From positions 1,680,001 through 1,712,000 of the forward strand of contig NZ_CP011041.1 in assembly GCF_002310835.1 (NCBI RefSeq): 32,000 bases of DNA, given 5' to 3'. Below, piece after piece: positions 1,574 to 21,820 of the stretch (positions within the stretch are counted from its first letter, which is position 1; the number at the start of each line of letters is the position of its first letter). The stretch is from Pseudoalteromonas tetraodonis. Its GTDB lineage: Bacteria > Pseudomonadota > Gammaproteobacteria > Enterobacterales > Alteromonadaceae. The notes beneath the pieces were generated by a model. That model made no database searches, was not told the DNA's origin, and worked only from the letters and a program-made list of their open reading frames with translations. Made by a program: the position numbers and the translations under genes.

Positions 1574-1588
1574 TTTAAGTGCTCCTGC

Positions 1589-2287
1589 TTAATCTCGTGT
1601 GGTAACACGTTCAATGCGTTTTTCAAAGTTGCCCTTGATCACGCGATTTACAAAAATGCCAGGGGTATGAATTTGACTTGGCTCTAGCTCACCGGGTTCA
1701 ACAATCTCTTCCACTTCGGCAACGGTAATTTTACCTGCGGTTGCGGCCATTGGATTAAAGTTCATTGCGGTATGGCGAAATACTAAATTACCGTAACGGT
1801 CTGCTTTCCATGCTTTTACAATGGCAAATTCGCCCGTGATTGACTCTTCTAAAATATAAGGGCGACCATTAAATTCTTTTACTTCTTTACCCTCAGCTAC
1901 TGGCGTACCGTAACCCGTGGCGGTATAAAAAGCAGGAATACCGGCACCACCAGCACGCATTTTTTCTGCTAGAGTCCCTTGCGGTGTTAGCTCTACATCA
2001 ATTTCGCCATTAAGTAGTTGTTGTTCAAAAAGAGCATTTTCGCCCACATAAGAGGCAACCACTTTTTTAATTTGTTTGTCTTGTAATAAAAGCCCTAAAC
2101 CAAAGTCATCAACGCCGCAATTGTTCGATACGACCGTTAACTCTTTGGTTTGCATTTTTTTAATTTGTGCTATTAATCCCTCGGGAATACCGCATAAACC
2201 AAAACCACCAGCGATGATAGTATCGCCGTCTTTTAAACCTTCCATTGCAGCTTCGTAACTCGAAACTACTTTATCAAAACCGGCCAT
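1589..2287 (-). CDS. scoA: Succinyl-CoA:3-ketoacid CoA-transferase subunit A (liuF)
   Basis: 232 aa. The motifs [17 protein letters not shown] and [23 protein letters not shown] are typical of the CoA-transferase alpha subunit. Confidence 0.92.
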
Positions 2288-2316
2288 GAGTGACTCCTCA
2301 TTCTATGCTATTGCAA

Positions 2317-5204: not shown

Positions 5205-5212
5205 AATGCGTC

Positions 5213-5983: not shown

Positions 5984-5995
5984 TGTGCGCTCCGG

Positions 5996-7603
5996 TTACA
6001 TTCTAAATACGCCAAACTTAGACTCACGCTGTGGTGCATTTTTAGCTGCTGTTAATGCAAGCCCTAACACATTACGTGTATCGACAGGGTCTATAATGCC
6101 ATCGTCCCATAAGCGGGCACTGGCATAATAAGGATGACCTTGTTGTTCGTATTGACTAATAATTGGCTTTTTAAAATCGCTAACTTCTTGCTCGCTCATG
6201 CTTTCGCCTTTACGGGCTAATCCATCTTGTTTAACTTGTGCCATAACACCGGCAGCTTGCTCACCACCCATGACTGAAATACGGGCATTTGGCCACATCC
6301 ACATCATGGTCGGTTCAAATGCACGGCCACACATTCCATAATTGCCGGCGCCATAAGAGCCACCAATAAGCACGGTGAATTTTGGTACATCAGCACACGA
6401 CACCGCCATCACCATTTTAGCGCCATGTTTAGCAATGCCTTCGGCTTCGTATTTTTTACCGACCATAAAGCCAGTAATATTTTGTAAAAATACCAATGGA
6501 ATGTTGCGCTGAGCACACAGCTGAATAAAGTGCGCGCCTTTTTGCGCCGACTCACTAAATAAAATACCGTTATTAGCCACTATGCCCACAGGGTTGCCAT
6601 AAATGCTGGCAAAGCCTGTCACCAATGTTTCGCCAAAGTAACGTTTAAATTCATCAAAAGACGAGTCATCGACAGTGCGGGCTATTACTTCACGCACATC
6701 AAATGGCTTTTTAAGATCAGTACCAACAATGCCGTAAAGCTCGTTAATATCGTAACGGGGAGCTTTTACGTCATCTAATAATGGGGCGGTAGGGCGTGTG
6801 TAATTAATTCGCTCTATGCATTGGCGTGCAATTGATAATGCATGCGCATCATTTTCAGCGTAATGATCGGCCACACCCGATGTTTTACAATGAACATCGG
6901 CGCCGCCAAGCTCTTCTGCGGTAACTTCTTCACCGGTTGCCGCTTTTACCAGTGGTGGGCCTGCTAAAAATATAGTGCCTTGCTCTTTAACAATAATACT
7001 TTCATCGGCCATAGCAGGAACATACGCACCACCTGCGGTACATAAGCCCATAACCACTGCAATTTGTGGAATGCCTTTACCCGACATACGTGCTTGATTG
7101 TAAAAAATACGCCCAAAATGCAGTTTATCTGGAAATACATCGTCTTGCTCTGGCAAATTAGCACCGCCAGAATCAACTAAGTAAATACACGGTAAGTGGC
7201 AACGCTCAGCAATATCTTGTGCGCGTAAATGCTTTTTAACAGTAAGGGGGAAATAGGTGCCACCTTTAACTGTCGCGTCGTTTGCAATCACCATACATTC
7301 AACGCCTTTCACGCGACCAATACCTGCAACCACACCGGCACAAGGTATCTCTTGTTCATACACACCAAATGCAGCAAATTGCGATATTTCTAAAAAGGGT
7401 GAGCCTTCATCTAATAAAGTACTGATACGGTCACGAACAAACAGCTTTCCTCTGCTTTCATGGCGCTCTTTAAGTGCAGCGCCACCACCTAAGCTAATAT
7501 TGGCAACTTTATCGCGTAAATCATCCACCAGCGCCGACATATTTTTGTGGTTTTGCACAAAACTAGGATCGTGGGGATTAACGCTCGATTTTAAAATCGT
7601 CAT
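5996..7603 (-). CDS. liuB: 3-Methylcrotonyl-CoA carboxylase beta subunit (carboxyltransferase)
   Basis: 535 aa in the carboxyl-transferase family, with length and sequence typical of MccB ([43 protein letters not shown]). Confidence 0.95.
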
Positions 7604-7613
7604 AAATTAATCC

Positions 7614-8789
7614 TTAACGGCTTTCAGTAAATAATTCACGACCAATTAACATACGGCGTATTTCTGAGGTGCCTGCACCAATCTCGTATAATTTCGCATC
7701 ACGCAGTAAGCGACCTGTTGCGTATTCGTTTATGTAGCCATTGCCGCCTAAAATTTGGATTGCATCAAGGGCCATTTTAGTTGCAAGCTCTGCAGCGTAT
7801 AAAATTGCGCCAGCTGCGTCTTTACGGGTGGTTTCGCCGCGATCACAGGCTTTTGCTACTGTGTACACATAAGAGCGGGCTGCATTCATTTGTGTATACA
7901 TATCGGCAATTTTGCCTTGAATTAACTGAAATTGACCAATAGGACTGTCAAACTGCTTACGCTCATGAATGTAAGGCACCACAATGTCCATACATGCTTG
8001 CATAATTCCTAACGGGCCTGCAGCTAAAACAACTCGCTCGTAATCAAGGCCGCTCATAAGTACCTTAACGCCTTCGTTTAAGTTACCTAAAATGTTTTCT
8101 TCGGGTACTTCGCAGTTATCAAATACCAGTTCACAGGTGTTTGATCCGCGCATACCGAGTTTGTCGAGTTTTTGTGCGGTAGAAAACCCCGGGAATGTTT
8201 TCTCAACAATAAAGGCGGTAATACCTTTCGCACCGGCGTTTAAATCTGTTTTTGCGTAAATAACCAGAGTATCGGCGTCAGGGCCATTGGTGATCCACAT
8301 TTTATTGCCGTTTAAAATGTACTTATCGCCTTTTTTCTCGGCTTTAAGTTTCATTGATACAACATCAGAGCCTGCGTTAGGCTCACTCATGGCCAAGGCA
8401 CCAATGTGTTCACCGCTAATTAGTTTAGGTAAGTATTTTTCTTTTTGTGCTTGTGATCCATTACGGTTTATTTGATTAACACACAGGTTTGAATGCGCAC
8501 CGTAACTTAAACCAATAGAGGCACTTGCACGGCTAATTTCTTCCATGGCAATAACGTGCTCTAAATAACCTAAGCCAGCACCACCAAATTCTTCATCCAC
8601 GGTCATGCCAAGCACGCCCATTTCACCCATTTGCGGCCAAAGTTCATTGGGGAACGCATTATCAAGGTCAGTTTTTTCAGCTAGTGGGGCAATTTCTTGA
8701 CTGGCAAAGCTGTTTACGTGACTGCGGATCATATCTGCAGTTTCGCCAAGGCCAAAGTTCATTTCTTTATATAGTGAAATAGTGCTCAT
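7614..8789 (-). CDS. liuA: Isovaleryl-CoA dehydrogenase
   Basis: 391 aa acyl-CoA dehydrogenase. The N-terminus [17 protein letters not shown] and the C-terminus [32 protein letters not shown] are typical of IVD. It is the first structural gene after liuR. Confidence 0.92.
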
Positions 8790-8824
8790 GATTAATTCCT
8801 GTGTGTTGATGACGTTGTTATATT

Positions 8825-9259
8825 TTATTCATCTATTTTGCTAAGCGTGTCGCGACAGCGACGTTCAGCGGTGACCAGTTCCATAAGAACCACTTTAATG
8901 TCATCCATCTGTTGTGAAAGATCGGCTTTTTTCTCACTGATAAGGTCAAGCATAGTAACTAACTGTTTTGCACTTGATTTATCAGCATCATACAGTTCAA
9001 ACAAACGACCTGTTTCAGCTAAGGTGAAACCTAAACGTTTACCGCGCAGTATTAGCTTAAGGCGTACCTTGTCGCGCTTTGAGTAAATACGTGTTTGGCC
9101 ATTGCGCTCTGGCGATATTAACCCTTGGTCTTCGTAAAAACGGATAGAGCGGGTAGTAATATCAAATTCTTTCGCTAATTCGCTGATACTAAAAGTTTGT
9201 TCGTTTTTAGCCGGCTCATTGGCTGAATTTGCAAAGTTTGTTTGATTATCTGATTTCAT
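8825..9259 (-). CDS. liuR: MerR-family transcriptional regulator of the leucine catabolic operon (LiuR type)
   Basis: 144 aa. It has the Mer[30 protein letters not shown] followed by a coiled-coil dimerisation helix. It is the first gene of the liu operon, as described for gammaproteobacterial LiuR. Confidence 0.85.
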
Positions 9260-9498: not shown

Positions 9499-9588
9499 TT
9501 TTATGTATGCTCGTATTTATCAGATTAGTTTAAACATTAAGCTAAACATAATAAAACATGTTTGCGTTAATAGAAAATGGAGCCTTTT

Positions 9589-10770
9589 ATGTCTTTCGAA
9601 AGCGTTGTAATTGTAGCAGCAAAACGCACCCCAATGGGTGGATTTATGGGCGCACTAAGTGATGCGCAGTCTACTGAACTAGGTGCTACAGCTATTGCAG
9701 GTGCACTTGCTCAAACGGGTTTAAGCAATGATGCAATTGATGAAGTGATTATGGGCTGTGTATTACCAGCTGGCTTAGGCCAAGCGCCTGCACGTCAAGC
9801 AATGCTTAAAGCGGGGCTTGCACTTAGCACCGGTGCTACCACTATTAATAAAGTATGTGGCTCGGGTTTAAAAGCAGCGATGTTAGCGAATGATTTAATT
9901 AAGGCGGGTTCTATTGAATCAGCAATCGCTGGTGGTATGGAAAGCATGACCAATGCGCCTTACTTTATTCCTAAAGCCCGTGGCGGTATGCGTATGGGAC
10001 ATGGTGAAATAAAAGATCATATGATGAGCGATGGCCTTGAAGATGCTTACGACAATAAAGCAATGGGTTGTTTTGCTCAAGACACAGCCGATGAATACGG
10101 TATTGGTCGTGAGCAAATGGATAATTTTGCATTAAGCTCACTGACTAAAGCAAAAGCTGCAATTGAAAATGGTAGCTTTGAGAACGAGATTACTCCGCAC
10201 ACTATAAAAACGCGTAAGGGTGACATCACCGTTTCAATCGATGAGCAACCTGGCAACGCACGACCTGAAAAAATTCCAAGCTTAAGAGCTGCATTTAAAA
10301 AAGACGGCACCATTACTGCCGCTAACTCATCGTCTATTTCAGATGGTGGCGCAGCACTGATTTTAATGAGCGAATCAAAAGCAAAAGCAGAGGGTTTAAC
10401 GCCACTGTGCAAAATTGTGGCTCACAGCACGCATTCTCAAAAACCCAGTGAATTTACCGTAGCGCCTGTTGGTGCAATGAACAGCGTACTTGAAAAAGCA
10501 GGGTGGACAACCGCCGATGTTGACCTATGGGAAATTAACGAAGCGTTTGCCATGGTTACCATGCTAGCTATTAACGAGTTAAAGCTTGATGAGAACAAAG
10601 TTAATGTTAACGGTGGAGCCTGTGCATTGGGTCATCCTATTGGTGCCAGCGGTGCGCGTATTTTAGTAACACTTATCCATGCACTTAAAAACCGGGGTCT
10701 TAAAAAGGGCGTAGCCTCTTTATGTATTGGTGGCGGTGAAGCCGTTGCCATGGCCGTAGAAGCACTTTAA
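9589..10770 (+). CDS. Acetyl-CoA C-acyltransferase / acetoacetyl-CoA thiolase (ivdA in Shewanella nomenclature)
   Basis: Thiolase motifs are present: NKVCGSGLKA (active-site Cys) and NVNGGACALGHPIGASGARI. The track start at 9577 contains the GGAG that serves as Shine-Dalgarno for the ATG at 9589 (MSFESVVIVAAKRTP). Confidence 0.9.
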   Translation: MSFESVVIVAAKRTPMGGFMGALSDAQSTELGATAIAGALAQTGLSNDAIDEVIMGCVLPAGLGQAPARQAMLKAGLALSTGATTINKVCGSGLKAAMLANDLIKAGSIESAIAGGMESMTNAPYFIPKARGGMRMGHGEIKDHMMSDGLEDAYDNKAMGCFAQDTADEYGIGREQMDNFALSSLTKAKAAIENGSFENEITPHTIKTRKGDITVSIDEQPGNARPEKIPSLRAAFKKDGTITAANSSSISDGGAALILMSESKAKAEGLTPLCKIVAHSTHSQKPSEFTVAPVGAMNSVLEKAGWTTADVDLWEINEAFAMVTMLAINELKLDENKVNVNGGACALGHPIGASGARILVTLIHALKNRGLKKGVASLCIGGGEAVAMAVEAL

Positions 10771-10840
10771 CTAATAATAAAGCCGCAGCAACTATAACAA
10801 AAACGCTGCGGTACCCAATTTAATCAATAGGATTTTAATT

Positions 10841-12331
10841 ATGCACCAAGTACCCTTACTCATTAACGGCGAATTTATTCAATCAACTTCAAATGAATTA
10901 ATTGATGTTGTAAATCCTGCTAATCAAGAAGTGTTAGCGCAAGTACCTTGTGCTACAGACGCTGAAATGGACGCGGCTATTGCCTCTGCCAGCGAAACGT
11001 TTAAAACGTGGAAAGACGTACCAATTACAGAACGTGCGCGCATTATGATGAAATACGCGGCGCTGTTAAAAGAAAACCATGACGAACTAGCCACTATTAT
11101 TTGTCATGAATTAGGTAAAACATTTGAAGATGCAAAAGGCGATGTGTGGCGTGGTATTGAAGTAGTCGAGCAAGCTGCTAATGCACCATCATTAATGATG
11201 GGCGAGACGATGGAAAACGTAGCGCGTAAAATCGATACCTATTCATATATGCAGCCACTAGGTGTATGTGCAGGTATTACCCCATTTAATTTTCCGGCCA
11301 TGATCCCACTTTGGATGTTCCCACTGGCAATTGTGTGTGGTAACACCTTTATTTTAAAACCGTCTGAGCAAGACCCACTTACGCCAATGCGTTTAGCTGA
11401 GCTATTTATTGAAGCGGGTGCACCAAAGGGTGTTTTACAAGTTGTGCACGGTACAAAACCACAAGTAGACCGTTTATTAGAAGACAAAGCGGTTCGCGCT
11501 ATTTCATTTGTAGGTTCATGTGGCGTAGGTGCATACATTTATTCTAAAGGCACACAACATCTAAAACGTGTGCAAGCCTGTGTGGGCGCTAAAAACCACA
11601 TGGTAATTATGCCTGATGCAAGCAAGTCTCACGTAGTTAATAACTTAGTAGGCGCATCGGTTGGTGCGGCAGGCCAGCGTTGTATGGGTATTTCAGTGGC
11701 GGTATTTGTTGGCCAAGCAAAAGACTGGGTTGATGAAATTAAAGCTGGCTTTGAAGGTGTACGCCCAGGTGTATGGGATGATGCAGACGCTGCATATGGT
11801 CCGCAAACATCACCAGCTGCAAAAGCGCGTATTTTATCATTGATTGCCGATGGTAAAGCGCAAGGCGCAACCTGTTTAATTGATGGCTCTGACTTTACTG
11901 TTGAAGGGTTTGAGCAAGGTAACTGGATAGGCCCAACGTTATTTACTGATGTAACCAAAGAGATGAACTTGTACAAAGAAGAGATTTTTGGCCCAGTACT
12001 GGCGTGTATGTTTGTAGATACGCTTGAAGAAGCCATCGCCCTTATTAACGAAAGCCCTTACGGTAACGGTACCTCATTATTTACATCAAGTGGTGCAGCT
12101 GCACGTAAGTTCCAACACGAAATTGAAGTGGGTCAAGTGGGTATTAATGTGCCTATTCCTGTGCCACTGCCATTTTTCTCGTTCACGGGTTGGAAAGGCT
12201 CATTCTACGGCGATACTCACACCTATGGTAAACAAGGTATTCGTTTTTACACAGAAACTAAAACTATTACCTCTCGTTGGTTTGAGGATGACATTGCCTC
12301 AGGTCCAAACATGAGTATTAATCTTAAATAA
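10841..12331 (+). CDS. mmsA: Methylmalonate-semialdehyde dehydrogenase (CoA-acylating)
   Basis: 496 aa in the ALDH family, with the MmsA-typical N-terminus [10 protein letters not shown] and the catalytic region GQRCMGISV. Confidence 0.94.
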
Positions 12332-12357
12332 TATTGCACTGAATAATTAATAAAAAA

Positions 12358-12389
12358 GAGGGGCACAACACACAGTGTTGTCGCTCCTC
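12358..12389 (+). other. Strong intra-operon hairpin between mmsA and the acyl-CoA dehydrogenase gene (no U-tract)
   Basis: GAGGGGCACAACAC-aca-GTGTTGTCGCTCCTC forms a 7+7 bp stem with one bulged C. It lies 27 nt after the mmsA stop and is followed by ACTAATTAC rather than a T run. Confidence 0.35.
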
Positions 12390-12451
12390 ACTAATTACTC
12401 CCGTTATGGGATGCTTTGACAACAAACAAAACACACTTAAAGAGGTCTACC

Positions 12452-13609
12452 ATGGACTTTAACTTATCTGAAGATCAACAAGCCTTTGCGCAAACCGCTC
12501 GCCAATTCGCAGAGTCTGAACTAGCACCACACGCTGCCAAGTGGGATCGCGAACATATTTTTCCTAAAGACACAATAAAAGCCGCTGGTGAGCTAGGTTT
12601 TTGTGGTTTATACACCCCAGAAGAAGCCGGTGGCTTAGGTTTATCTCGCTTAGATTCAAGCATTATTTTTGAACAGCTGGCGATGGGCTGTACCGCAACA
12701 ACGGCTATGTTAACTATTCATAATATGGCAACCTGGATGATAGCCAGTTTTGCGACCGATATCGTAAAAGAGCAATACGTTGAACAATTAGTAATGGGTG
12801 AATTACTTGCATCGTACTGTTTAACTGAGCCAGGCTCGGGTTCTGATGCTGCGTCATTAAAAACTAAAGCAGTGCGTGACGGTGATGAGTATGTTATTAA
12901 CGGCTCAAAAATGTTTATTTCAGGCGCCGGTGAAACAGAAATTCTAGTGGTCATGGCGCGTACGGGAGCCGATGGCCCTGGTGGTATTTCGGCTTTTGTT
13001 GTACCTGCAGATGCATCAGGTGTTGAATACGGTAAAGCAGAAGAAAAAATGGGGTGGAATGCACAGCCCACACGTTTAATTAGCTTTGAAGATGTGCGTA
13101 TTCCAGCCGCAAACTTATTAGGCCAAGAAGGTGAAGGCTTTAAATTCGCCATGCAAGGTTTAGACGGCGGCCGTATTAATATTGCCACTTGCTCTATTGG
13201 TACAGCCCAAGCGGCACTTAATACGGCCCGTGAGTATTTAAAAGAGCGTACCCAATTTGGTAAGCCATTGGCTGCGTTTCAAGCGCTACAGTTTAAAATT
13301 GCCGATATGAATACCGAGCTTGTAGCAGCACGCCAAATGGTGCGCTTAGCGGCGTTTAAACTCGATACTAACGACAGTGAAAAAACCACTTATTGCGCCA
13401 TGGCTAAACGTTTTGCCACCGATGTTGGTTTTACCGTGTGTAATGACGCGCTGCAAATTCACGGTGGCTACGGTTACATAAAAGAATACCCGCTTGAGCG
13501 CCATGTTAGAGATGTACGTGTTCATCAAATTCTTGAGGGCACTAACGAAATTATGCGTGTGATTATTGCGCGTCGTATTTTAGCCGAATCAGCCAGCGAA
13601 GTTTTATAA
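12452..13609 (+). CDS. Short/branched-chain acyl-CoA dehydrogenase (isobutyryl-/2-methylbutyryl-CoA dehydrogenase; ivdC)
   Basis: It has the ACAD fold (CLTEPGSGSDAASLKT, QIHGGYGYIKEYPLERHVRDVRVHQILEGTNEIMR). The ATG at 12452 (MDFNLSEDQQ) follows an AGAGG Shine-Dalgarno. The track's upstream TTG start at 12416 is unlikely. Confidence 0.9.
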   Translation: MDFNLSEDQQAFAQTARQFAESELAPHAAKWDREHIFPKDTIKAAGELGFCGLYTPEEAGGLGLSRLDSSIIFEQLAMGCTATTAMLTIHNMATWMIASFATDIVKEQYVEQLVMGELLASYCLTEPGSGSDAASLKTKAVRDGDEYVINGSKMFISGAGETEILVVMARTGADGPGGISAFVVPADASGVEYGKAEEKMGWNAQPTRLISFEDVRIPAANLLGQEGEGFKFAMQGLDGGRINIATCSIGTAQAALNTAREYLKERTQFGKPLAAFQALQFKIADMNTELVAARQMVRLAAFKLDTNDSEKTTYCAMAKRFATDVGFTVCNDALQIHGGYGYIKEYPLERHVRDVRVHQILEGTNEIMRVIIARRILAESASEVL

Positions 13610-13619
13610 GGAGATTAGT

Positions 13620-14399
13620 ATGTCAAATCCTAGCATTGAGTTAACTATTGAAGGCCATGTAGCTATTTTAACCATGTCGAATCCGCCAGCGAATACCTGG
13701 ACGAAAGACACCTTAGTGGCGCTTAAAGACACGGTTAACCAATTAAATACCAATAAAAATATTTATGCGTTAGTACTGACTGGTGAAGGCGAGAAGTTCT
13801 TTAGCGCCGGTGCCGACCTAAATGTATTTGCCAGTGGCGATAAAGGTGTAGCTGCAGATATGTCACGTGTATTTGGTGAAGCGTTTGAAGCGCTAACTAA
13901 TTTTAGAGGTGTGTCGGTTGCAGCCATTAATGGCTATGCAATGGGTGGCGGCCTTGAAGTAGCGCTTGCTTGTGATATTCGTATTGCAGAAGAGCAAGCA
14001 CAAATGGCGTTACCTGAAGCAAAAGTGGGTTTATTACCGTGTGCTGGTGGAACGCAAAACTTAGCATGGCTTGTTGGCGAGGGCTGGGCAAAACGCATGA
14101 TTTTATGCGGTGAGCGCTTAAAAGCCGATAAAGCCCTACAAATTGGCTTAGTGGAAGAAGTGGTTGCACAAGGTGAAAGCTTTGCCGCAGCATTAAAACT
14201 GGCAAACCAAGTAGCAGAGCAAAGTCCATCGTCGGTTGCTGCATGTAAAACCTTGATTCAAAAAGGGCGTCATCAACCAATGGCGAATACATTGCCACTG
14301 GAGCGTGAACTGTTTGTTGGTTTATTTGATACCGAAGATCAGCAAGAGGGCGTGAACGCCTTTTTAGAAAAACGTAAAGCTATTTGGGTGAATGGCTAA
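13620..14399 (+). CDS. Enoyl-CoA hydratase (methacrylyl-CoA hydratase; ivdD)
   Basis: 259 aa crotonase with FFSAGADLNVF and GYAMGGGLEVALACDIRIA. The stop overlaps the next start (TAATG). Confidence 0.9.
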   Translation: MSNPSIELTIEGHVAILTMSNPPANTWTKDTLVALKDTVNQLNTNKNIYALVLTGEGEKFFSAGADLNVFASGDKGVAADMSRVFGEAFEALTNFRGVSVAAINGYAMGGGLEVALACDIRIAEEQAQMALPEAKVGLLPCAGGTQNLAWLVGEGWAKRMILCGERLKADKALQIGLVEEVVAQGESFAAALKLANQVAEQSPSSVAACKTLIQKGRHQPMANTLPLERELFVGLFDTEDQQEGVNAFLEKRKAIWVNG

Positions 14400-15556
14400 T
14401 GACAGAACTTACTCGTTTAAATTCAGCTGATGCTGCCGTGGTATTTGAAACAGCAACCACAGACAATGGCCGACTCATTGGTTTTGCAACCTTAAATGCG
14501 CCTAAATCGTTAAATGCCCTTAATTTTGAAATGATCAGCTTACTCGAGCCGCAACTACAGCAATGGGACAAAGACGATAACATTGCATTAGTGGTTCTTA
14601 AAGGCACTGGTGAAAAAGCATTTTGTGCCGGTGGCGATGTAGTGAGCTTACACAAAGCAATGAGTGAGGGAAAACCGAGCTCACTGGTTGAAGAATTTTT
14701 TACTCAAGAGTATCAGCTCGATTACCTAATTCACTGTTACAACAAACCCATTTTAGTGTGGGGTAACGGGATTGTAATGGGCGGCGGTTTAGGTTTAATG
14801 GCCGGTGCCAGTCATCGCGTAGTGACTGAAACATCACGCATTGCTATGCCAGAGCAAACCATTGGTCTTTACCCTGATGTAGGTGGCAGTTATTTTTTAC
14901 ATAAAATGCCTGCGCATGTTGGTTTGTTTTTAGGGCTGACCTCGGCATCAATAAATTGTGAAGACGCTAAGCTTGTATCGCTTGCCGATCACTTTGTAAA
15001 TGCCGATAAATACCCAGAGCTTGTTGAAGCGTTACTCAATACTAAATGGGGTAAAACAGCAAGTTTAAACCACGACAAGCTAAGTAACTTGCTTATTGAG
15101 TTAGATAACAACTCTAGCCGTATGCCTAAAGGCAATTTAAAAGCCAACTTATCGCTAATTCAAAAGTTAGGCGACTTTGACACCTTACAGCAGCAGGTAG
15201 ATTACATTTTAAACCTAACCACAGATGACAAATGGCTACAACGTGCACAAAAATCGTTGGCGCATGGTTGCCCTTTAAGTTGTGCCTTAGTAAGTGAGCA
15301 GCTCAAACATAGCAAAGGTAAAAACTTAGCTGAGTGTTTTAAAATGGAATTGGGCATGTCGGTTCGTGCCGGTGAAGTGGGCGAGTTTCAAGAAGGTGTA
15401 CGTGCCTTACTAATCGATAAAGATGGTGCGCCACAGTGGCAGTTTAAATCGTTAGCTGATGTACCAAAAGAAGTAGTAGAGAGCTTTTTTGCAAACCGCT
15501 TTGGCGAGCAACATCCGCTAGAGCCGTACTTTTCACAACTAAATTTACAAGGGTAA
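14399..15556 (+). CDS. 3-Hydroxyisobutyryl-CoA hydrolase (ivdE)
   Basis: About 385 aa of the ECH_2-type crotonase family (AFCAGGDV, GIVMGGGLGLMAGASHRVVTE, EGVRALLIDKD). The ATG at 14399 overlaps the upstream stop, which fits translational coupling. The track start at 14384 would overlap more. Confidence 0.85.
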   Translation: MTELTRLNSADAAVVFETATTDNGRLIGFATLNAPKSLNALNFEMISLLEPQLQQWDKDDNIALVVLKGTGEKAFCAGGDVVSLHKAMSEGKPSSLVEEFFTQEYQLDYLIHCYNKPILVWGNGIVMGGGLGLMAGASHRVVTETSRIAMPEQTIGLYPDVGGSYFLHKMPAHVGLFLGLTSASINCEDAKLVSLADHFVNADKYPELVEALLNTKWGKTASLNHDKLSNLLIELDNNSSRMPKGNLKANLSLIQKLGDFDTLQQQVDYILNLTTDDKWLQRAQKSLAHGCPLSCALVSEQLKHSKGKNLAECFKMELGMSVRAGEVGEFQEGVRALLIDKDGAPQWQFKSLADVPKEVVESFFANRFGEQHPLEPYFSQLNLQG

Positions 15557-15560
15557 AGCG

Positions 15561-16460
15561 ATGAGTAAACTTAATATAGGATTTATTGGTTTAGGAAACA
15601 TGGGCGGCCCAATGGCAGCAAACTTAGTTAAAGCAGGCCACAGTGTGCGCGTGTTTGACTTAAGTGCAGAGGCCGTGAAAGAGCTTGTGAATCATGGGGC
15701 TAGTGCGGCGCAAAGCGCCAGTGACTGTGCTCACGAGGCTGATGTGCTAATTAGCATGCTACCGGCAAGCAAACATGTTAAATCACTTTATTTAGGCACA
15801 GACGAGCAATCGGGTTTAATTAAAGTACTGAGTAAAAGTACCTTAGTGATTGATTGTTCAACTATAGATGCACAATCAGCACGTGACGTTGGCCATGCCC
15901 TAAGTGAGCAAGGTATTGCGTTTGTTGATGCACCGGTATCGGGTGGTGTAGCAGGTGCAACAGCAGGAACGCTTACGTTTATCGTTGGTGGTGAGCAAGC
16001 TGCATTCGATAAAGCCAATACTGTATTAGTCGATATGGGTAAAAACATATTCCATGCTGGTGATATTGGTGCTGGGCAAGTTGCCAAAATATGTAACAAT
16101 ATGCTGTTGAGTATTTTAATGGCAGGCACCAGTGAAGCCATTCAAATGGGCATTAATAACGGCCTCGACGCAAAAGTACTCAGCGACATAATGAGCGCAA
16201 GTTCGGGTCGTAACTGGACGTTAGAACTTTATAACCCCTGCCCAGGTGTTATGGAAACCGCACCAGCTAGTAACGACTATAAACCCGGCTTTATGGTTGA
16301 TTTAATGGCTAAAGATTTAGGCCTTGCTATGGAAGCGGCGCAACAAAGTAATTCACTGACGCCAATGGGCTCAATGGCTAAAAATTTATACACTATGATG
16401 CAGCACCAAGGTGCAGGCAGTGATGATTTTAGTGCCATTTTTAAATTGTTTTCGAAGTAG
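15561..16460 (+). CDS. mmsB: 3-Hydroxyisobutyrate dehydrogenase
   Basis: 299 aa. It has the N-terminal Rossmann motif IGFIGLGNMGGPMAANL, then DAPVSGG and GAGQVAKICNN, typical of HIBADH. Confidence 0.92.
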   Translation: MSKLNIGFIGLGNMGGPMAANLVKAGHSVRVFDLSAEAVKELVNHGASAAQSASDCAHEADVLISMLPASKHVKSLYLGTDEQSGLIKVLSKSTLVIDCSTIDAQSARDVGHALSEQGIAFVDAPVSGGVAGATAGTLTFIVGGEQAAFDKANTVLVDMGKNIFHAGDIGAGQVAKICNNMLLSILMAGTSEAIQMGINNGLDAKVLSDIMSASSGRNWTLELYNPCPGVMETAPASNDYKPGFMVDLMAKDLGLAMEAAQQSNSLTPMGSMAKNLYTMMQHQGAGSDDFSAIFKLFSK

Positions 16461-16469
16461 GAAAGTATT

Positions 16470-17240
16470 GTGGAAATAAAAAATAATACCGTAGTTATTA
16501 CCGGTGGCGCACAAGGCTTAGGTTTTGCAATGGCGCAAAAGTTTGCCTTAATGGGCGCTAATATTGCCTTAATTGATATGGCGCAAGCCCAATTAAATGA
16601 AGCAACCGAGCAACTATCTGCATTAGCAGGCGTAACAGGCACTATTAAAGGCTACAGCGCCAATGTAACCGTTGAGAGCGAAGTTGAAGACGTTTTTAAT
16701 ACTATTAACAGTGACTTTGGCCACATTGGGGTATTAATTAATAACGCCGGCATTTTACGCGATGGTATGTTTATAAAAGCCAAAGACGGCAAAGTGGTTA
16801 AAAAAATGTCGCTTGAACAATTTCAATCAGTGATTGACGTTAACCTAACAGGTGTATTTTTAGCAGGGCGCGAAGCTGCAAGCCACATGATTGAATCAGG
16901 CAAAGGTGGCGTAATTGTAAATATGTCGAGCGTAGCGCGTGCGGGTAATATTGGCCAAACTAACTATGCTGCCTCAAAAGCCGGTGTTGTGGCACTAACC
17001 ACTACATGGGCTAAAGAGCTTGGCCGTTTTGGTATTCGCGTTGGCGCCATTGCCCCAGGTGTTATTAGCACCGCAATGACCGATGTAATGAAGCCCGAAG
17101 CAAAACAACGCATGCTTGCTGTAACGCCCGTAGGGCGCTTAGGTGAAACCGCTGAAATAGCCCATACCGCACAGTATATTATCGAAAACGACTTTTTTAC
17201 TGGCCGTGTAGTAGAGATAGACGGCGGTATTCGTTTGTAA
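16470..17240 (+). CDS. SDR-family oxidoreductase (probable 3-hydroxy-2-methylbutyryl-CoA / 3-hydroxyacyl-CoA dehydrogenase; ivdG)
   Basis: 256 aa classical SDR with a GTG start. It carries TGGAQGLG, NNAG and the YAASK catalytic motif. It is the last gene of the operon, followed by a terminator. Confidence 0.85.
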   Translation: MEIKNNTVVITGGAQGLGFAMAQKFALMGANIALIDMAQAQLNEATEQLSALAGVTGTIKGYSANVTVESEVEDVFNTINSDFGHIGVLINNAGILRDGMFIKAKDGKVVKKMSLEQFQSVIDVNLTGVFLAGREAASHMIESGKGGVIVNMSSVARAGNIGQTNYAASKAGVVALTTTWAKELGRFGIRVGAIAPGVISTAMTDVMKPEAKQRMLAVTPVGRLGETAEIAHTAQYIIENDFFTGRVVEIDGGIRL

Positions 17241-17275
17241 ACTAATGTTTATAAACGTATGAGTGTTAGTTGATT

Positions 17276-17310
17276 AAAAAGCACAGCCTTTTGGGTTGTG
17301 CTTTTTTTGT
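17276..17310 (+). terminator. Rho-independent terminator of the valine/isoleucine operon
   Basis: AAAAAGCACAGCC-tttt-GGGTTGTGC is followed by TTTTTTTG. It lies 36 nt after the SDR stop. Confidence 0.75.
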
Positions 17311-17346
17311 TTTAAGTCGGACATTTATAATTTTGAAAAAGGGCTG

Positions 17347-17779
17347 ATGTATCCGTAAACGTAGTACCTCCATTAATCGCATACCACTGCCATAAAGTAA
17401 TCCACAGGGTAAATAATGCTTCGCAGAGCACACTTTAAAAAATTGTTTATTTCTTGTTGCGTTAAAACTACCGGTAGTTTAGTTGCTCGTTTACCCTTAA
17501 TAAAACCTAATGATAATGAGAGTGGCTTTTTAATCACTTCTTTAAATAAAAAGTTAAACGCATTTAAGGCTTGTGATTGAGTATTAGAAGCAACATTTTG
17601 TTGGTTGACTAAATGATTTAAAAAAGTTCGACCTCATTATCTCACATCGTTGTAGGGTGCCTCATAGAGTTAAAACGAATAAACGAAGCTATCCAGTATA
17701 AATAAGCTTTAACGGTACTTTTAGCATAACGCTTTAGATACATTTGTTCGGCTATCATAGTTAAAAAAGGTGATTTCAT
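17347..17779 (-). pseudogene. intI: Integron integrase (IntI) remnant. Only the N-terminal ~145 codons remain, with an in-frame TGA, at least two frameshifts and a 3' truncation.
   Basis: The minus-strand translation from the ATG (complement of 17777-17779) reads as follows.
- First segment: MKSPFLTMIAEQMYLKRYAKSTVKAYLYWIASFIRFNSMRHPTTM*DNEVELF.
- After a -1 shift in a T6 run: LNHLVNQQNVASNTQSQALNAFNFLFKEVIKKPLSLSLGFIKGKRATKLPVVLTQQEINNFLK.
- After a second shift: LPCGLLYGSGMRLMEVLRLRI.
Similarity stops at about 17347. The pattern matches my recollection of VchIntIA (MKSQFL..YAKKTIEAYLHWI..HP..MGDKEVEEFL..VA.KTQS.ALN..FLYKE..K.PLSL...KLPVVLT..LLYGSGLRLME..RLR). No ORF of this locus appears in the track. 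Confidence 0.8.
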
Positions 17780-18006
17780 GACATGAATCTTTAGTAAAAA
17801 AGCAACTGTATATATGGACAGTGTTTATCGTCTTGTCCAATATTACTGATCTCCACCATTTTGGTGTATTTCTAAATTAAAGAAAAAAACTTAAAGTTAA
17901 CTAATTATTTACAGGTGTTTATTAGATGGTTAAGATAAATGTATTGTAATATATGGACATTTGTTGGTTTATAAAGCGACAAATGTCGTAGACAAAATTG
18001 TTAAGT
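17780..18006 (+). other. attI-like region upstream of intI, ending in a GTTRRRY core (GTTAAGT, 18000-18006)
   Basis: This is a non-coding AT-rich stretch between the intI start and the first cassette ORF.
- The 11-mer ATATATGGACA occurs at 17810-17820 and 17949-17959.
- An inverted near-copy TGTCCAATATT lies at 17834-17844.
- A hairpin GACATTTGT / ACAAATGTC spans 17956-17987.
- The core GTTAAGT sits 26 nt before the cassette ORF start. Confidence 0.4.
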
Positions 18007-18031
18007 TGCACACACATATGGAGTAGTAAAA

Positions 18032-18307
18032 TTGGAAGTTTTGAAAGATGTAGTTTTAGAATGGGCACTTTGGATTGACGTAATTGCACTTGTACTAATA
18101 GCATTAACTAGATTTTTCTCAAATACGAAATCTAGTTGGGCGGGTGTTGGCTGTATTTTAATTGTAATAGCACTTGGTAATGCTATTTCGTTAGTTAGCG
18201 TTGGTATTAACCCTACAGAACATATTGCTTCGTTATTTGGTTTAGCAGTGTTGGGATCATTAGGAGTTAGATTATTTAGTAATTGGCTCACTGATGGAGC
18301 AACTTAA
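18032..18307 (+). CDS. Integron cassette ORF: 91-aa small integral membrane protein (three predicted TM helices), function unknown
   Basis: It has a TTG start preceded by GGAG (18020-18023). Three hydrophobic segments are visible: WALWIDVIALVLIALTRFF, GVGCILIVIALGNAISLVSVGI and IASLFGLAVLGSLGVRLF. The stop TAA (18305-18307) lies inside the attC R'' box, a common cassette arrangement. Confidence 0.55.
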   Translation: MEVLKDVVLEWALWIDVIALVLIALTRFFSNTKSSWAGVGCILIVIALGNAISLVSVGINPTEHIASLFGLAVLGSLGVRLFSNWLTDGAT

Positions 18308-18408
18308 CAAGGCAAATCACGCGGAGGGCTAAAGCTGTCGCATTTTTTGCTAAAAACCAAAGGCGCAAAAAATGCGCCAGCACGCCGCCAGTGTTTGCGG
18401 CGTTGAGT
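18302..18408 (+). repeat. attC-like recombination site (107-bp imperfect palindrome)
   Basis: - R'' is ACTTAAC (18302-18308), which fits RYYYAAC.
- R' is GTTGAGT (18402-18408), which fits GTTRRRY.
- The arms CTTAACAAGGCAAATCAC and GTGTTTGCGGCGTTGAG pair imperfectly with extrahelical bases.
- The central stem is GCATTTTTTGC / GCAAAAAATGC.
- The 5' part (TAACAAGGC...GAGGGCT..GCTGTC) resembles Vibrio VCR repeats as I remember them. Confidence 0.6.
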
Positions 18409-18420
18409 AAATAAATAAAC

Positions 18421-18438
18421 TGACACCCACTCTAATTT
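18421..18438. repeat. Left terminal inverted repeat of the Y1-transposase element
   Basis: TGACACCCACTCTAATTT. Its reverse-complement partner is at 19789-19806. Confidence 0.7.
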
Positions 18439-18710
18439 TTGCAGTTTGGCGAACTAAGTACTAGGCTTTAATCAGTGTGAAAAAAGCTGGGTGTCTTATG
18501 GCAATCGCAAGAAAGCGTCAAGTAAGCTTGGTTGATACAAAGTATTATCACTGTATTTCACGTTGCGTTCGTCGTGCTTTCTTGTGCGGTGAAGACCATT
18601 TTATTGGTCAATCGTATGAGCATCGCAGAAGGGTGGGTTGAAGATAAGTTACTCGCACTAACCAAGGTATTTTGTATTGACGTATGTGCTTATGCTGTTA
18701 TGAGTAACCA

Positions 18711-18778
18711 GCAAAATGTCGGAACATTTTACAACAGCGCAGCTGGCCCGGAGGGCGGAAGGCAGGATGCCTGAAGTA
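18711..18778 (-). repeat. ~68-nt structured repeat (MITE/REP-like), copy 1, inserted inside the HUH motif of the transposase
   Basis: Removing it restores AAC CAC ACG CAT TTA GTG (N-H-T-H-L-V). It contains the hairpins AAAATG/CATTTT, GCCC/GGGC and AGGCA/TGCCT. Its reverse complement aligns with copy 2: CATCC(A)TG, CCCTYCGGGC, then a terminal A/T hairpin. Confidence 0.6.
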
Positions 18779-19049
18779 CACGCATTTAGTGTTGTATGTA
18801 GATGATAAGAAAGCTAATAGGTTAAATGATAAAGCGATTGTTATTCGCTGGCACAAGCTGTGCAAAGGCACCGTACTTACGCAAAAGTACATACAAGGCG
18901 AAAAGCTAAGCAAAGCCGAACTTTTCTTTTTTAATCAAACAGTAAAGGAATACCGAGAGCGCTTATCAAGTATTAGCTGGTTTATGCGGTCGTTAAATGA
19001 AGACATTGCGCGCAGAGCAAATAAAGAAGATAACTGCACTGGCAGGTTT

Positions 19050-19121
19050 TATTCGCTGCCATCCATGGCGCTCACCCTTCGGGCTGCCTAACGGCATTCA
19101 AATTTATTCCCTATAAATTTA
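19050..19121 (+). repeat. ~72-nt structured repeat (MITE/REP-like), copy 2, inserted between GRF and WEGRF codons of the transposase
   Basis: Removing it restores GGC AGG TTT TGG GAA GGT. It contains GCCAT-cc-ATGGC, CCC-ttc-GGG and the terminal hairpin AAATTTAT-tccc-ATAAATTT. It carries an in-frame TAA. Its boundaries are ambiguous by a few nt because of flanking T/A runs. Confidence 0.6.
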
Positions 19122-19641
19122 TGGGAAGGTCGCTTTAAATCACAAGCACTCCTTGATGAAGCGGCGCTTGCCGCGTGTATTGCATACGTCGATTTAAACC
19201 CTATTAGGGCTAAGATGGCTATCACTCCAGAAGAGTCTCACCATACCAGTTTACAAAAACGCTTAATATACGCAAAAGAAGGCAAGCAGCCAAAACAACT
19301 ACTTCGCTTTGCAGGTATGCCGAGTCAAATTATGCCAAAAGGGCTGCCGTTTAAGCTTAAGTCGTATCTTGAATTAGTTGAATTAACAGGGAGAATAATG
19401 CGAAAGGATAAACTCGGCCATATTGATAACACTCAACTTCCTTTACTGGAAAGACTCAATATATCTCCTGAAAACTGGTTAAAACTCACTACACAATTTA
19501 CACTCGTATTTCACGGCGCAGTTGGCAGGCCGACCTCACAAGCAAGTTATTGTGAAAATTTGAATCGAAAACGGCGAGCTAATACAAGTAATTGTGAAAG
19601 GCTATTAGCATAAACTATAAATTACTCAGTAGAAAAGTTGA

Positions 19642-19664
19642 AACTGCATCATGCAGTTATTTTT
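19642..19664 (+). terminator. Putative terminator of the transposase gene, inside the element
   Basis: AACTGCA-tca-TGCAGTT is followed by ATTTTT. It lies 29 nt after the transposase stop. Confidence 0.5.
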
Positions 19665-19788
19665 ATGCGTGGAATTTAGATTCAAGTGTAATAATGGCTT
19701 ATTTGCTAGATGAAACGAAAGTAACGTAGTCGTAAAGCATAAATTATTAACCTATAAAATAAATATAAGAACTTAGCTTTTGCTTGTT

Positions 19789-19806
19789 AAATTAAAGTGG
19801 GTGTCA
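19789..19806. repeat. Right terminal inverted repeat of the Y1-transposase element
   Basis: AAATTAAAGTGGGTGTCA, the reverse complement of the left repeat with one mismatch. Confidence 0.7.
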
Positions 19807-19818
19807 TGTTAGTTCATC

Positions 19819-20186
19819 ATGTTAGTTAGAGCGCTGTCAGATGCTAATTTGTTGTTGATAATAAAGTACGTGTTCAATGTCAATTATCAAACCTATGGTA
19901 GCCCGCGCGTATTTCATTCGCTAAAAAAGAAGGTGTGAACATAAGCCAAAAGCGTGTTGCCTGCTTAATGCTAGAAAACGGTTTAAGAGCCAAAGCATTT
20001 AATAATTACAGTAAACCGGCGAAGGTGAAGTTCTTTTATAAAGAGGTGTCAAAATTAAAGGGTTATCTAGACTATTTTTATAATAGACAGCGATTGCATT
20101 CAAGTTTAGGATATAAATTGTCTGCTGAGTTTGAATCGGCAGTTAATTGAAACGTGGACGGTGTCAACTTTATCGGGTGAAGATCA
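19819..20186 (+). pseudogene. IS3-family transposase (OrfB) remnant with a frameshift and an internal deletion of the DDE core, plus the IS right inverted repeat
   Basis: - The N-terminal OrfB-like piece reads RALSDANLLLIIKYVFNVNYQTYGSPRVFHSLKK.
- After a frameshift in an A run it continues GVNISQKRVACLMLENGLRAK.
- It then jumps to the C-terminal signature YLDYFYNRQRLHSSLGYKLSAEFE (track ORF 19935-20150).
- The downstream sequence, read in reverse complement, is TGATCTTCACCCGATAAAGTTGACACCGTCCACG, which is IS3-like (TG...CA ends, GGACAC-type core). It ends at 20186. Confidence 0.7.
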
Positions 20187-20300
20187 CTTGTGAAAGCTAT
20201 CGTCTTTTTTGTTTCAAAAAAACGCTATCTCACCAAATCGGTGTTTAAGGCTTTAAATGGCTTCGTATTTGCCATCATTTTAGTTAAGGAATAATAAAGA

Positions 20301-20816
20301 ATGGATAATAATAAGTGGTATAAAAACCCTGAGATGATAGTTGCTTTATCTGCTCTTCTTATAGGGTTAGTTACTGCTTTTACGTCAATTTATTCAGCCT
20401 ATGTTGATCGTGAATATGCAAGAGCATCAGTTTGGCCAAGGTTGGAAATATTCAGAAGTTTTAGCGAAGATTCATTTGGTTACGGTGTAAGTAATAATGG
20501 AACTGGCCCTGCATTGATAAAATATGCAAAAGTGAAGGATGATTCTAAATACATAAAAAAATGGATTGAAATAGAGGCATTTCAGAATATCAGACAATCA
20601 CACCTTAGCAATCGCACATTGTCACCTCAAAGCAACATTACCCCAGTTTCTTACAAAGGAGAGAATGCAAAAGCTCTTGTCAAAGCCGATGATTTAATAA
20701 GTATAGAACTTTGTTATTGCTCTATTTACAAAGAATGTTGGGTTATTGATAGAGAAAACCGTCCAAAATCAGTGGAAGCTTGTATTGCCGACAATAAGCA
20801 AACATTTCTACAATAA
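20301..20816 (+). CDS. Hypothetical 171-aa protein with an N-terminal transmembrane anchor. No recognisable family.
   Basis: The ATG is preceded by AAGGA. The TM segment is MIVALSALLIGLVTAFTSIYSAY, followed by a soluble ~130-aa region with 4 Cys near the C-terminus. Codon usage is AT-rich, like the surrounding accessory patch. Confidence 0.6.
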   Translation: MDNNKWYKNPEMIVALSALLIGLVTAFTSIYSAYVDREYARASVWPRLEIFRSFSEDSFGYGVSNNGTGPALIKYAKVKDDSKYIKKWIEIEAFQNIRQSHLSNRTLSPQSNITPVSYKGENAKALVKADDLISIELCYCSIYKECWVIDRENRPKSVEACIADNKQTFLQ

Positions 20817-21031
20817 ACGCTAGTAAACAATAATTTAAAGCGGTACTGCTAACAGTTTACTCGGTTTCGTGCGCCGACACAGTTTTAGAAACAATTATCA
20901 CCCCCTCGAAACAAAAGGGGGTAAATCTTGACTTCAGACATCAAAAGAGCCAATGCTGCAAGTGTTGGTTAGTCAAAACCACTCGCACTCAATACTCTGC
21001 GGTTTATTAATGTTTAAACGCGTGATAATTT

Positions 21032-21064
21032 AAAAAACGGTAACTTAAGGTTGCCGTTTTTTTA
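21032..21064. terminator. Hairpin with flanking A and T runs (bidirectional terminator-like) at the right edge of the accessory patch
   Basis: AAAAAACGGTAAC-ttaa-GGTTGCCGTTTTTTT. Confidence 0.55.
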
Positions 21065-21268
21065 TGCCTATTATTTAAGTTTATTTTAAGCTTGCTCAGT
21101 TATTATAACTAATACTTAAATTCCAGAATCATTAAACTATTGAACTGACTTATTAACTCATTCTATGTTTCAGATCATTAAACTGTGAGTGATTAAAGGT
21201 TAGCCTGTATACATGTACTCATATGCATAAGTGAGCTTTTAACTTTAATGCGTTTATTAGGAGGTATT

Positions 21269-21820
21269 ATGAATTTTAAAAATACAGATACTCATTACAA
21301 TACACTCTCTGTTGCTTTGCATTGGTTGATGTTTATTTTAATTGTGACTGTGTACGGTAGTATTGAACTTCGCGAATTATTTGATAAAGGCACTGAAACC
21401 CGTGATGCCTTTAAAATGTGGCACTTTATGTTGGGTTTATCGGTTTTAGCTTTAGTAAGCGTGAGGGTAGTTGCGCGTGTAGTGGGTGGTGCAGCACCTG
21501 CTATACAACCTGAGCCTGTAAAATGGCAAGATAAGTTAGCTAAATTTGTACACCTTGCGCTGTATGTGTTTATGTTTGCTATGCCAATTGCGGGTTGGTT
21601 AATATTAAGTATGGCAGGTAAACCTGTGCCATTTTTTGGTTTAGAGCTGCCTCCATTGGTAAGTGAAAACAAAGAGCTGGGTAAAACCATTAAAGAAATA
21701 CACGAAACAGCGGGCGAAGTTGGTTATTACGTAATAGGCTTACATGCGGCGGCTGCATTATTTCATCATTACATTTTGGCTGATAACACCTTTAAACGTA
21801 TGCTGTTTTCTAAAAAATAA
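21269..21820 (+). CDS. cybB: Cytochrome b561 family protein (CybB-like)
   Basis: 183 aa from the ATG at 21269, which follows an AGGAGG Shine-Dalgarno (the track start at 21248 is less likely). The sequence YNTLSVALHWLMFILIV...H...H is a four-TM di-haem b561 pattern with conserved His residues (HW, HF, HLALY, LHAAAALFHH). Confidence 0.85.
   Translation: MNFKNTDTHYNTLSVALHWLMFILIVTVYGSIELRELFDKGTETRDAFKMWHFMLGLSVLALVSVRVVARVVGGAAPAIQPEPVKWQDKLAKFVHLALYVFMFAMPIAGWLILSMAGKPVPFFGLELPPLVSENKELGKTIKEIHETAGEVGYYVIGLHAAAALFHHYILADNTFKRMLFSKK

Follow-up and report, generated by a model that had tools for sequence, protein, structure and literature searches.

Remains of a sedentary chromosomal integron downstream of the valine catabolism operon in a Pseudoalteromonas lineage

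What occupies the ~4 kb of seemingly junk DNA between the valine catabolism (ivd) operon and cybB in Pseudoalteromonas tetraodonis? A reading made from the letters without database searches (the sequence-only reading) had proposed an integron in decay, with an interrupted integrase gene (intI), a recombination core, one open reading frame (ORF) and a palindrome. We followed it up in a stretch of 32,000 nucleotides (assembly GCF_002310835.1, contig NZ_CP011041.1, positions 1,680,001 to 1,712,000), here called the window, and the analysis of this genome was confined to these 32 kb. Very probably, the stretch is the remnant of a sedentary chromosomal integron downstream of the ivd operon of one Pseudoalteromonas lineage, inactivated and partly eroded in the SM9913-like species sampled. 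Its main surviving parts are the docking site attI, one intact cassette and a second, eroded cassette, and its recombinase gene is broken. For annotation, the value of the result is that DNA without apparent function can be recorded as an integron remnant. The parts on which this reading is built are the following, in window coordinates:

17325 to 17779, minus strand: intI pseudogene (translation, TIGR02249 profile, alignment to relatives)
17806 to 17821, no strand: LexA-box-like palindrome CTGTATATATGGACAG of the form CTGT-N8-ACAG, 27 bp upstream of the intI start codon
17780 to 18000, plus strand: region from intI to the cassettes, with attI and promoters (84% identity to locus L003, seven-locus alignment)
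18000 to 18006, plus strand: attI core GTTAAGT, recombination point between G and TT (homology breakpoints)
18001 to 18402, plus strand: gene cassette 1 (cross-genus DNA homology, attC)
18302 to 18408, minus (bottom) strand: attC of cassette 1, with R'' ACTTAAC at 18302-18308 and R' GTTGAGT at 18402-18408 (covariance model R2)

Three minus-strand frames of 17300-17800 join by direct translation into about 145 residues (MKSPFL...LLYGSGMRLMEVLRLRI). In order, they read MKSPFLTMIAEQMYLKRYAKSTVKAYLYWIASFIRFNSMRHPTTM and a TGA; DNEVELF and a frameshift; LNHLVNQQNV...TQQEINNFLK and a second frameshift; and finally VCSAKHYLPCGLLYGSGMRLMEVLRLRI. The sequence-only reading had taken these residues for the N-terminal part of an IntI-type integrase, and both the translation and the integrase profile bear it out. 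Once repaired, the remnant (144 amino acids) matched the NCBIfam profile TIGR02249 "integron integrase" with 177.4 bits (E = 4e-52, profile positions 1-140 of 315), as opposed to 36.7 bits for XerD and 29.3 bits for XerC; the IntI profile is the better of the three, as that reading had predicted. The score stays below the full-length cut-off of TIGR02249 (265) because half of the gene is gone. The class 1 IntI equivalog profile gave 93.7 bits against a cut-off of 435, and Pfam recognised only a generic SAM-like N-terminal domain (Phage_int_SAM_4 96.7 bits, Phage_integrase 14.8 bits). A protein search with the remnant returned 35 relatives, all of 251 amino acids or fewer; most of those with a named source belong to Pseudoalteromonas, and one bears the name integron integrase. 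Judged by its sequence, the predicted product is a tyrosine recombinase of the IntI clade, not a XerC/XerD or phage integrase.

The gene is heavily damaged. An in-frame TGA lies at 17642-17644, where relatives have GGA, and two 1-bp deletions in homopolymer runs lie at ~17626 and ~17443, as seen by comparison with a Tara scaffold (L001) that is 99.8% identical. Codons 1 to ~146 are found at 17354-17779; the last nine codons (GYISPFSKL) and the stop are retained out of frame at 17325-17353, after a deletion junction at 17353-17356 around a short ACG(G) microhomology. Aligned to the intact locus of Pseudoalteromonas sp. Z1A8 (L006), window 16401-17348 corresponds to 2710-1765 and 17354-17842 to 1268-777, so that ~496 bp are gone. 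Since intI ends with its own last nine codons and stop, the deletion is internal and not a terminal truncation. From the catalytic set R-K-H-R-H-Y only the region of the box I arginine (GSGMRLMEVLRLR) is left, ~165 codons having been deleted, and the locus is not a complete (functional) integron. The stop, both frameshifts and the end point of the homology lie where the sequence-only reading had placed them. It had also described the loss of everything after a conserved box, which is right for the ~0.5 kb missing after ...LRLRI and wrong for the tail, and its stretch began at 17347, inside a remnant that actually starts at 17325.

Related genomes still carry the intact gene at the same place. 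When 185,579 species genomes were scanned with the aligned protein relatives of the remnant, 80 loci with a full-length IntI were obtained, all in Alteromonadales, Vibrionales and neighbouring orders. In Pseudoalteromonas sp. Z1A8 and Pseudoalteromonas sp. TB64 (L011), a full-length intI is convergent on the ivdG junction, with attC sites upstream of intI; the sequence-only reading had proposed this comparison, and its outcome favours the integron. The flanks at the junction are 93% (the SDR gene ivdG) and 86% (mmsB) identical in amino acids, and the whole ivd operon is kept in Z1A8 and, up to the contig edge, in TB64. The IntI proteins of TB64 and Z1A8 have 309 and 305 residues and score 450-454 bits on TIGR02249. 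The intI_Cterm signature (...LGWQYLFSSHKLSxDPESKQLRRHH...) is present in both and in Pseudoalteromonas fuliginea (L004), the three scoring 450-488 bits on the same profile. The IntI of Z1A8 (841-1755) is full length, yet five residues short in the box II HTLRH region, and the intI of L003 (674-1683) is split by frameshifts; intI decay looks common in Pseudoalteromonas.

The two chromosomal landmarks that enclose the remnant are:

17276 to 17306, plus strand: intrinsic terminator of the ivd (valine catabolism) operon (terminator scan: 14-bp stem, then a T run)
21248 to 21820, plus strand: cybB, for cytochrome b561; chromosomal DNA that borders the array at its far end (Pfam PF01292)

The terminator is 18 bp from the intI stop codon, and its sequence is conserved beside the intI of Z1A8 and of P. 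fuliginea. Because it adjoins an intact intI in relatives, this proximity is the native position of the gene and not a product of decay. Thus, of the earlier picture of a decaying integron wedged against an operon terminator, the decay stands, and the closeness of the terminator belongs to the intact state as well. In P. fuliginea (L004 5204-5340), intI is followed by sequence 75% homologous to the last 31 bp of ivdG and the terminator, and there is neither ivdG nor an ivd operon near intI; apparently that integron has moved and taken a small piece of its former flank along.

On the other side of intI, the divergent arrangement of integrase gene and cassettes is preserved. Seven out of seven attI regions of Pseudoalteromonas share ...TGTTA (18000-18003) and diverge after it, and the identity to L003 stops at 18003, inside GTTAAGT. 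As no general attI model exists, attI was judged by such breakpoints; a match to GTTRRRY alone is at chance level, and it is the coincidence of the breakpoints with the core that makes GTTAAGT real, confirming the core proposed from the letters. We conclude from these alignments that an attI, with its crossover point at the boundary of the first cassette, is present beside intI. Facing the cassettes, a predicted consensus-type promoter resembling the cassette promoter Pc (TTTACA at 17908-17913, 17-nt spacer, TAAGAT at 17931-17936) matches the consensus at nine of twelve positions, and TTACA is invariant in the alignment of seven Pseudoalteromonas loci. The LexA-box-like palindrome is the sole CTGT-N8-ACAG match in the window and is invariant in the seven aligned Pseudoalteromonas intI loci. 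Transcription of intI is known to be under SOS control, and the box would be a relic of that control.

The first cassette contains a single ORF between core and palindrome, as predicted from the sequence. This gene, orf91 (18032-18307), begins with TTG, has GGAG 7 nt upstream, and encodes a predicted membrane protein of 91 amino acids for which Pfam and NCBIfam contain no family. Its homologues in Vibrio fluvialis, Shewanella baltica and Vibrio neonatus are 88-95% identical in amino acids. At the DNA level, the cassette is 92-93% identical to V. fluvialis and S. baltica starting from 18000, and 88% identical to V. neonatus starting from 18005; in V. fluvialis and S. baltica it is preceded by an attC ending in ...GCGTTAAGT. 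No attC was detected directly upstream of the cassette in V. neonatus, and a 77.5-bit attC is found at the cassette end there. The start of the cross-genus homology and the preceding attC place the left cassette boundary after the G of GTTAAGT. The ratio of nonsynonymous to synonymous substitution rates (dN/dS) of orf91 is 0.13-0.22, and it is therefore a real gene. Cassette DNA that is 88-93% identical in Pseudoalteromonas, Vibrio and Shewanella attests directly to exchange between these genera.

The cassette ends in the 107-bp imperfect palindrome (18302-18408), whose RYYYAAC and GTTRRRY ends and embedded orf91 stop (TAA at 18305-18307, inside R'') were all found as first described. At gathering thresholds, no Rfam family matched anywhere in the window, and a permissive scan of 17200-21300 gave only a sub-threshold match on the operon terminator and no attC family. 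We therefore turned to purpose-built covariance models. The first, R1, was made from 15 attC sites of three Pseudoalteromonas arrays; it has a canonical hairpin consensus with covariation in 12 of 24 pairs, and harvested 146 sites in 81 loci, all upstream of intI and on the array side and array strand. The second, R2, was built from those 146 sites, which belong to 80 other integrons, the window site being excluded. In the window, R2 placed its best match (23.9 bits, E ~0.005) precisely at 18302-18408 and on the minus strand, as expected from the orientation of intI and the ORF; the runner-up reached 11.5 bits and the plus strand stayed below 9 bits. As a control, R2 was run on 19 loci with ~10 kb on each side of intI: all 183 matches of at least 16.5 bits were on the array side, and there was none in the ~200 kb of non-array DNA of these loci. 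The palindrome is thus the top match of an attC covariance model, namely the purpose-built R2. An attC-type hairpin of the bottom strand has -24.7 kcal/mol, compared with -27.9 kcal/mol for the unconstrained minimum-energy fold, and arises only when pairing of the R boxes is enforced; unconstrained, either strand folds into two local hairpins.

Could such parts have come together in some other way? A remnant of a XerC/XerD-type or prophage recombinase, lying beside an unrelated hairpin (a terminator or a repetitive extragenic palindrome) and a GTTRRRY that arose by chance, might present itself with equally generic Pfam matches, an equally short and degenerate core, and a palindrome whose minimum-energy fold is a terminator-like pair of hairpins. 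We consider this very improbable, given that the integron-integrase profile is ahead of XerD and XerC by ~140 bits, that all close relatives are complete IntI proteins whose genes have attC arrays upstream, that the homology breakpoints fall on the predicted core (18000-18005), and that the attC match is unique in the window and strand-specific. A prophage or XerCD origin was rejected on profile scores and context. It is hardly credible, moreover, that the stop and the frameshifts are sequencing or assembly errors in homopolymers and that the N-terminal IntI fragment is really an intact ORF. The TGA is a substitution and not an error in homopolymer length, and together with both 1-bp deletions it is common to at least seven independent assemblies, including CP001796.1 (L089), which we take to be chromosome I of Pseudoalteromonas sp. 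SM9913; lesions that recur in this way are not sequencing errors. Although both frameshifts do lie in A/T homopolymer runs and L001, free of all three lesions, encodes an uninterrupted fragment of 171 amino acids, the catalytic domain is deleted even there.

Several observations weigh against the interpretation as an integron remnant, or limit it. The IntI-specific C-terminal insertion lies in the deleted part, so that the assignment of the integrase is made on the N-terminal half. The narrow model R1 gave the candidate attC 12.9 bits (E = 2.6, rank 3), which is not separable from chance, and the 23.9 bits of R2 are at the bottom of the range of array sites, mostly 25-100 bits. In addition, the R box carries a C-A mismatch and the minimum-energy fold of the bottom strand leaves the R and L boxes unpaired; the attC is recognisable with a low-end score and might no longer recombine. 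The promoter and the role of the LexA box are proposed from consensus matches and conservation, and a second, intact intI may exist in the genome beyond the 32 kb covered. The weakness of the attC feeds a narrower alternative, that 18302-18408 is a former attC, dead for recombination, which now serves only as terminator or stabiliser for cassette 1. This we hold to be possible, though on balance doubtful: besides the mismatch and the 3.2 kcal/mol by which the attC-type fold lies above the minimum, it can appeal to the contrast with the 68-77 bits of the orf91 attC in S. baltica and V. neonatus and to the V. fluvialis copy of the same attC type, which is without its R' end, whereas the two R boxes, pairing of the L boxes, a base that bulges from the expected arm and the strand asymmetry expected of a real attC (plus strand below 9 bits) are all present. 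Less probable still, and in our view improbable, is that the platform is alive, with an intact IntI elsewhere in the genome or on a mobile element acting in trans on this attI and attC, so that cassettes could still be gained or lost. IntI enzymes tolerate very diverse attC sites, attI and the attC of cassette 1 are intact, and the integrase search covered the window; however, an attI is as a rule recognised by its own IntI, the distal attC sites have decayed, and the identical cassette content of at least eight assemblies and metagenome contigs of the SM9913-like lineage speaks of no recent cassette turnover.

Beyond cassette 1, the inactivated integron continues towards cybB in the form of insertion sequence (IS) debris and a second cassette:

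18413 to 19814, plus strand: degenerate IS-like element with 26-nt inverted ends at 18413-18438 and 19789-19814 (inverted repeat, homology to L017)
~19890 to 20190, plus strand: remnant of an IS3-family transposase, internally deleted (its C-terminal 28 residues match NF033516)
20195 to 20257, plus strand: degenerate 3' part of the attC formerly before the ORF171 cassette (alignment to L097 and L100)
20258 to 20925, plus strand: second cassette, with ORF171 at 20301-20816 and an eroded attC from 20817 to ~20925 (homology to the L097 and L100 cassettes)

The decayed array hence runs from 18000 to ~20925, ending just short of cybB; the parts named in the sequence-only reading are present, while the array reaches much further than it had proposed, with a second cassette included. 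R2 found no further attC between 18409 and 21250, nor did it detect the degenerate site at 20195-20257, and the second cassette, with its eroded attC sites, was recognised solely by homology. A protein search returned 239 homologues of ORF171, from many Alteromonadales genera, with 56-86% identity among the matches listed; there is no family for it in Pfam or NCBIfam, and its dN/dS is 0.12-0.17. ORF171 is carried by a cassette with attC sites on both sides (44-89 bits) in L100, a Colwellia genome, and in L097, a contig from a metagenome, and window 20245-20897 is 83-85% identical in nucleotides to these cassettes. Alignment to these relatives shows the upstream attC with GGCTTTAAA in the window where they have GGCGTTAAC, and the downstream attC with its pairing and its R' end lost. 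The L097 protein is named by NCBI for a Paraglaciecola metagenome-assembled genome. The same contig has a VapBC toxin-antitoxin pair between two attC sites of its array (1689-2281), and the Colwellia locus has a retron-like pair, a reverse transcriptase with a Retron_Ec48-type effector, just past its last detected attC (6777-8516).

The IS-like element and the IS3 remnant separate the ORF171 cassette from cassette 1. The former (1.4 kb) begins 5 bp past the attC and contains a broken HUH/Y1 (RAYT-related) transposase gene, which matched NCBIfam REP_Tyr_transpos with 37.9 bits, below the family cut-off, and for which Pfam gave nothing. Its nearest copy, with 80% nucleotide identity, is in the integron array of L017 (3-1118), and there is a shorter protein-level match in the array of L007 (~2537-2761). 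In L017, the element lies ~175 bp inside a cassette, as compared with 5 bp after the R' box of the attC in the window; it may favour arrays, or its position may be a coincidence. A stretch of 71-72 nt sits at the same position of the Y1-like gene in the window (~19047-19118) and in L017 (~485-555), brings in a stop and splits ...NCTGRF from WEGRFKSQ...; when it is removed, the protein matches REP_Tyr_transpos across the join. The fold of the 72-nt stretch is unremarkable (z = -1.3). A further insertion of ~72 bp in the same gene (18711-18782, between ...AVMSN and VDDKK...) is absent in L017 and present in all SM9913-like assemblies. In the IS3 remnant, direct reading of the sequence gives an N-terminal OrfB-like motif (YGSPRV...).

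How the integron may have died can be read in part from these genomes. L001 shares the 0.5-kb deletion and its junction with the window and has none of the point lesions; therefore, the deletion came first and the point lesions later. Contig L096 is without the TGA and without the 17626 deletion, but a longer stretch of its intI is gone. Window 17201-21300 is 100% identical to L092 and differs from CP001796.1 by two bases; a literature search turned up no paper on an integron in this strain SM9913. An internal deletion of ~0.5 kb thus took out the catalytic domain of IntI, and a nonsense codon and two frameshifts followed; attI, cassette 1 and its attC stayed intact. The IS-like element and the IS3 remnant fill the middle of the former array, and the distal cassette with ORF171 persists with degenerate attC sites. 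With no recombinase in cis the array would be frozen, cassette excision, capture and shuffling being no longer possible. The conserved Pc-like promoter of the attI region probably still drives expression of the membrane protein encoded in cassette 1. Both cassette genes are under purifying selection, which would keep them as ordinary chromosomal genes. The kind of decay is ordinary and, from Xanthomonas, well documented, and the locus adds nothing that changes what is known about integrons. Its interest is that the sequence of decay is readable: first the catalytic domain was lost, then point lesions arose, alongside the insertion of IS elements and the erosion of attC sites. Both intact and decayed versions are found at one conserved chromosomal site in related genomes, which makes the locus a convenient small model of how a sedentary integron dies and its cassette genes become fixed chromosomal genes.

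Two patterns of identity in this lineage deserve mention. Of the 25 differences between the window and L001, 23 are clustered in 850 bp (17096-17942) that comprise the 3' end of ivdG and the intI remnant. L096 (268-403) is 99.3% identical over the integron remnant and only 76.5% in the ivdG flank. They suggest mosaicism by homologous recombination around the locus, or chimeric metagenome assemblies.

The cassette gene orf91 has a further peculiarity, as the attC that follows it is of either of two unrelated types. One (24 bits) is found in the window and in V. fluvialis, where the copy has lost the R' end; S. baltica and V. neonatus have the other (68-77 bits), a canonical Alteromonadales type. 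The two part directly after ACTTAACAAG, that is, R'' plus 3 nt (18302-18408 compared with L086 4271-4367 and L088 4271-4368). Tentatively, and with a probability that we put rather low, the two types could be explained by a recombination event at the R'' box, or by an attC having become attached to the one gene on separate occasions. If true, this would be a natural example of how cassettes obtain an attC or swap it for another, a problem that is still unsolved.

Upstream of the integron, 9577-17240 holds a complete valine catabolism (ivd/mms) operon with genes for a thiolase, methylmalonate-semialdehyde dehydrogenase, acyl-CoA dehydrogenase, enoyl-CoA hydratase (ECH), a second ECH-family protein, which is probably the 3-hydroxyisobutyryl-CoA hydrolase, 3-hydroxyisobutyrate dehydrogenase and the SDR. 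It is preceded by a cluster of ORFs on the opposite strand (917-9259), taken from size and position to be the leucine catabolism (liu) cluster; the sole ORF compared, 7614-8789, resembles an acyl-CoA dehydrogenase.

Where does this locus stand among known integrons? IntegronFinder by default calls a cluster of attC sites lacking integron-integrases (CALIN) from two or more attC sites. The window locus fits none of the three categories of that program, complete integron, In0 and CALIN (PMC4889954): it is neither complete nor In0 because its intI is a pseudogene without the C-terminal region used for detection, and it is not a CALIN because only one attC is significant in the window and an intI pseudogene is adjacent. 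It has been proposed that CALINs can arise by loss of intI, and intI pseudogenes were found near 15 of 279 CALINs (Cury et al. 2016, PMC4889954). With the C-terminal region of intI gone and one attC detectable, default integron finders would probably miss the locus. It has the same functional parts as the mobile class 1 integrons, in the same order of intI, attI, predicted Pc, cassette and attC; in contrast to them, it is not on a transposon or plasmid and has no resistance genes.

The locus also resembles the sedentary chromosomal integrons of marine gammaproteobacteria, such as the V. cholerae superintegron with VchIntIA and those of Shewanella and Alteromonas. The N-terminal domain of its IntI is 54-65% identical to theirs, and it shares with them the divergent intI and cassettes, the LexA box upstream of intI, cassettes common to several genera, and attC sites of ~100-130 nt with one architecture. 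In those integrons, however, the integrase is intact and the cassettes number from tens to hundreds, whereas in the window the catalytic domain is deleted and one attC is recognisable. The closest precedent is the integrons of Xanthomonas located downstream of ilvD, in which most integrases are reported to be inactivated by frameshifts, stops or large deletions (Gillings et al. 2005, as given in bioRxiv 10.1101/2025.06.18.660453) and some cassette genes are without attC sites (bioRxiv 10.1101/2025.06.18.660453). The two systems are alike in being sedentary and in occupying a constant position immediately behind a core metabolic gene, with a cassette content frozen within the lineage and some cassette genes without a recognisable attC. 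They differ in that the host in the window belongs to Alteromonadales, the anchor is ivdG (the SDR of the valine catabolism operon), the IntI lineage is of the marine Vibrio/Shewanella/Alteromonas type, and only two cassettes are kept, with IS debris between them. The ivdG-linked integron could even be a platform that is ancestral to a Pseudoalteromonas clade and passed on vertically within it, a suggestion in which we place only slight confidence, and as such a marine counterpart of the Xanthomonas ilvD integron.

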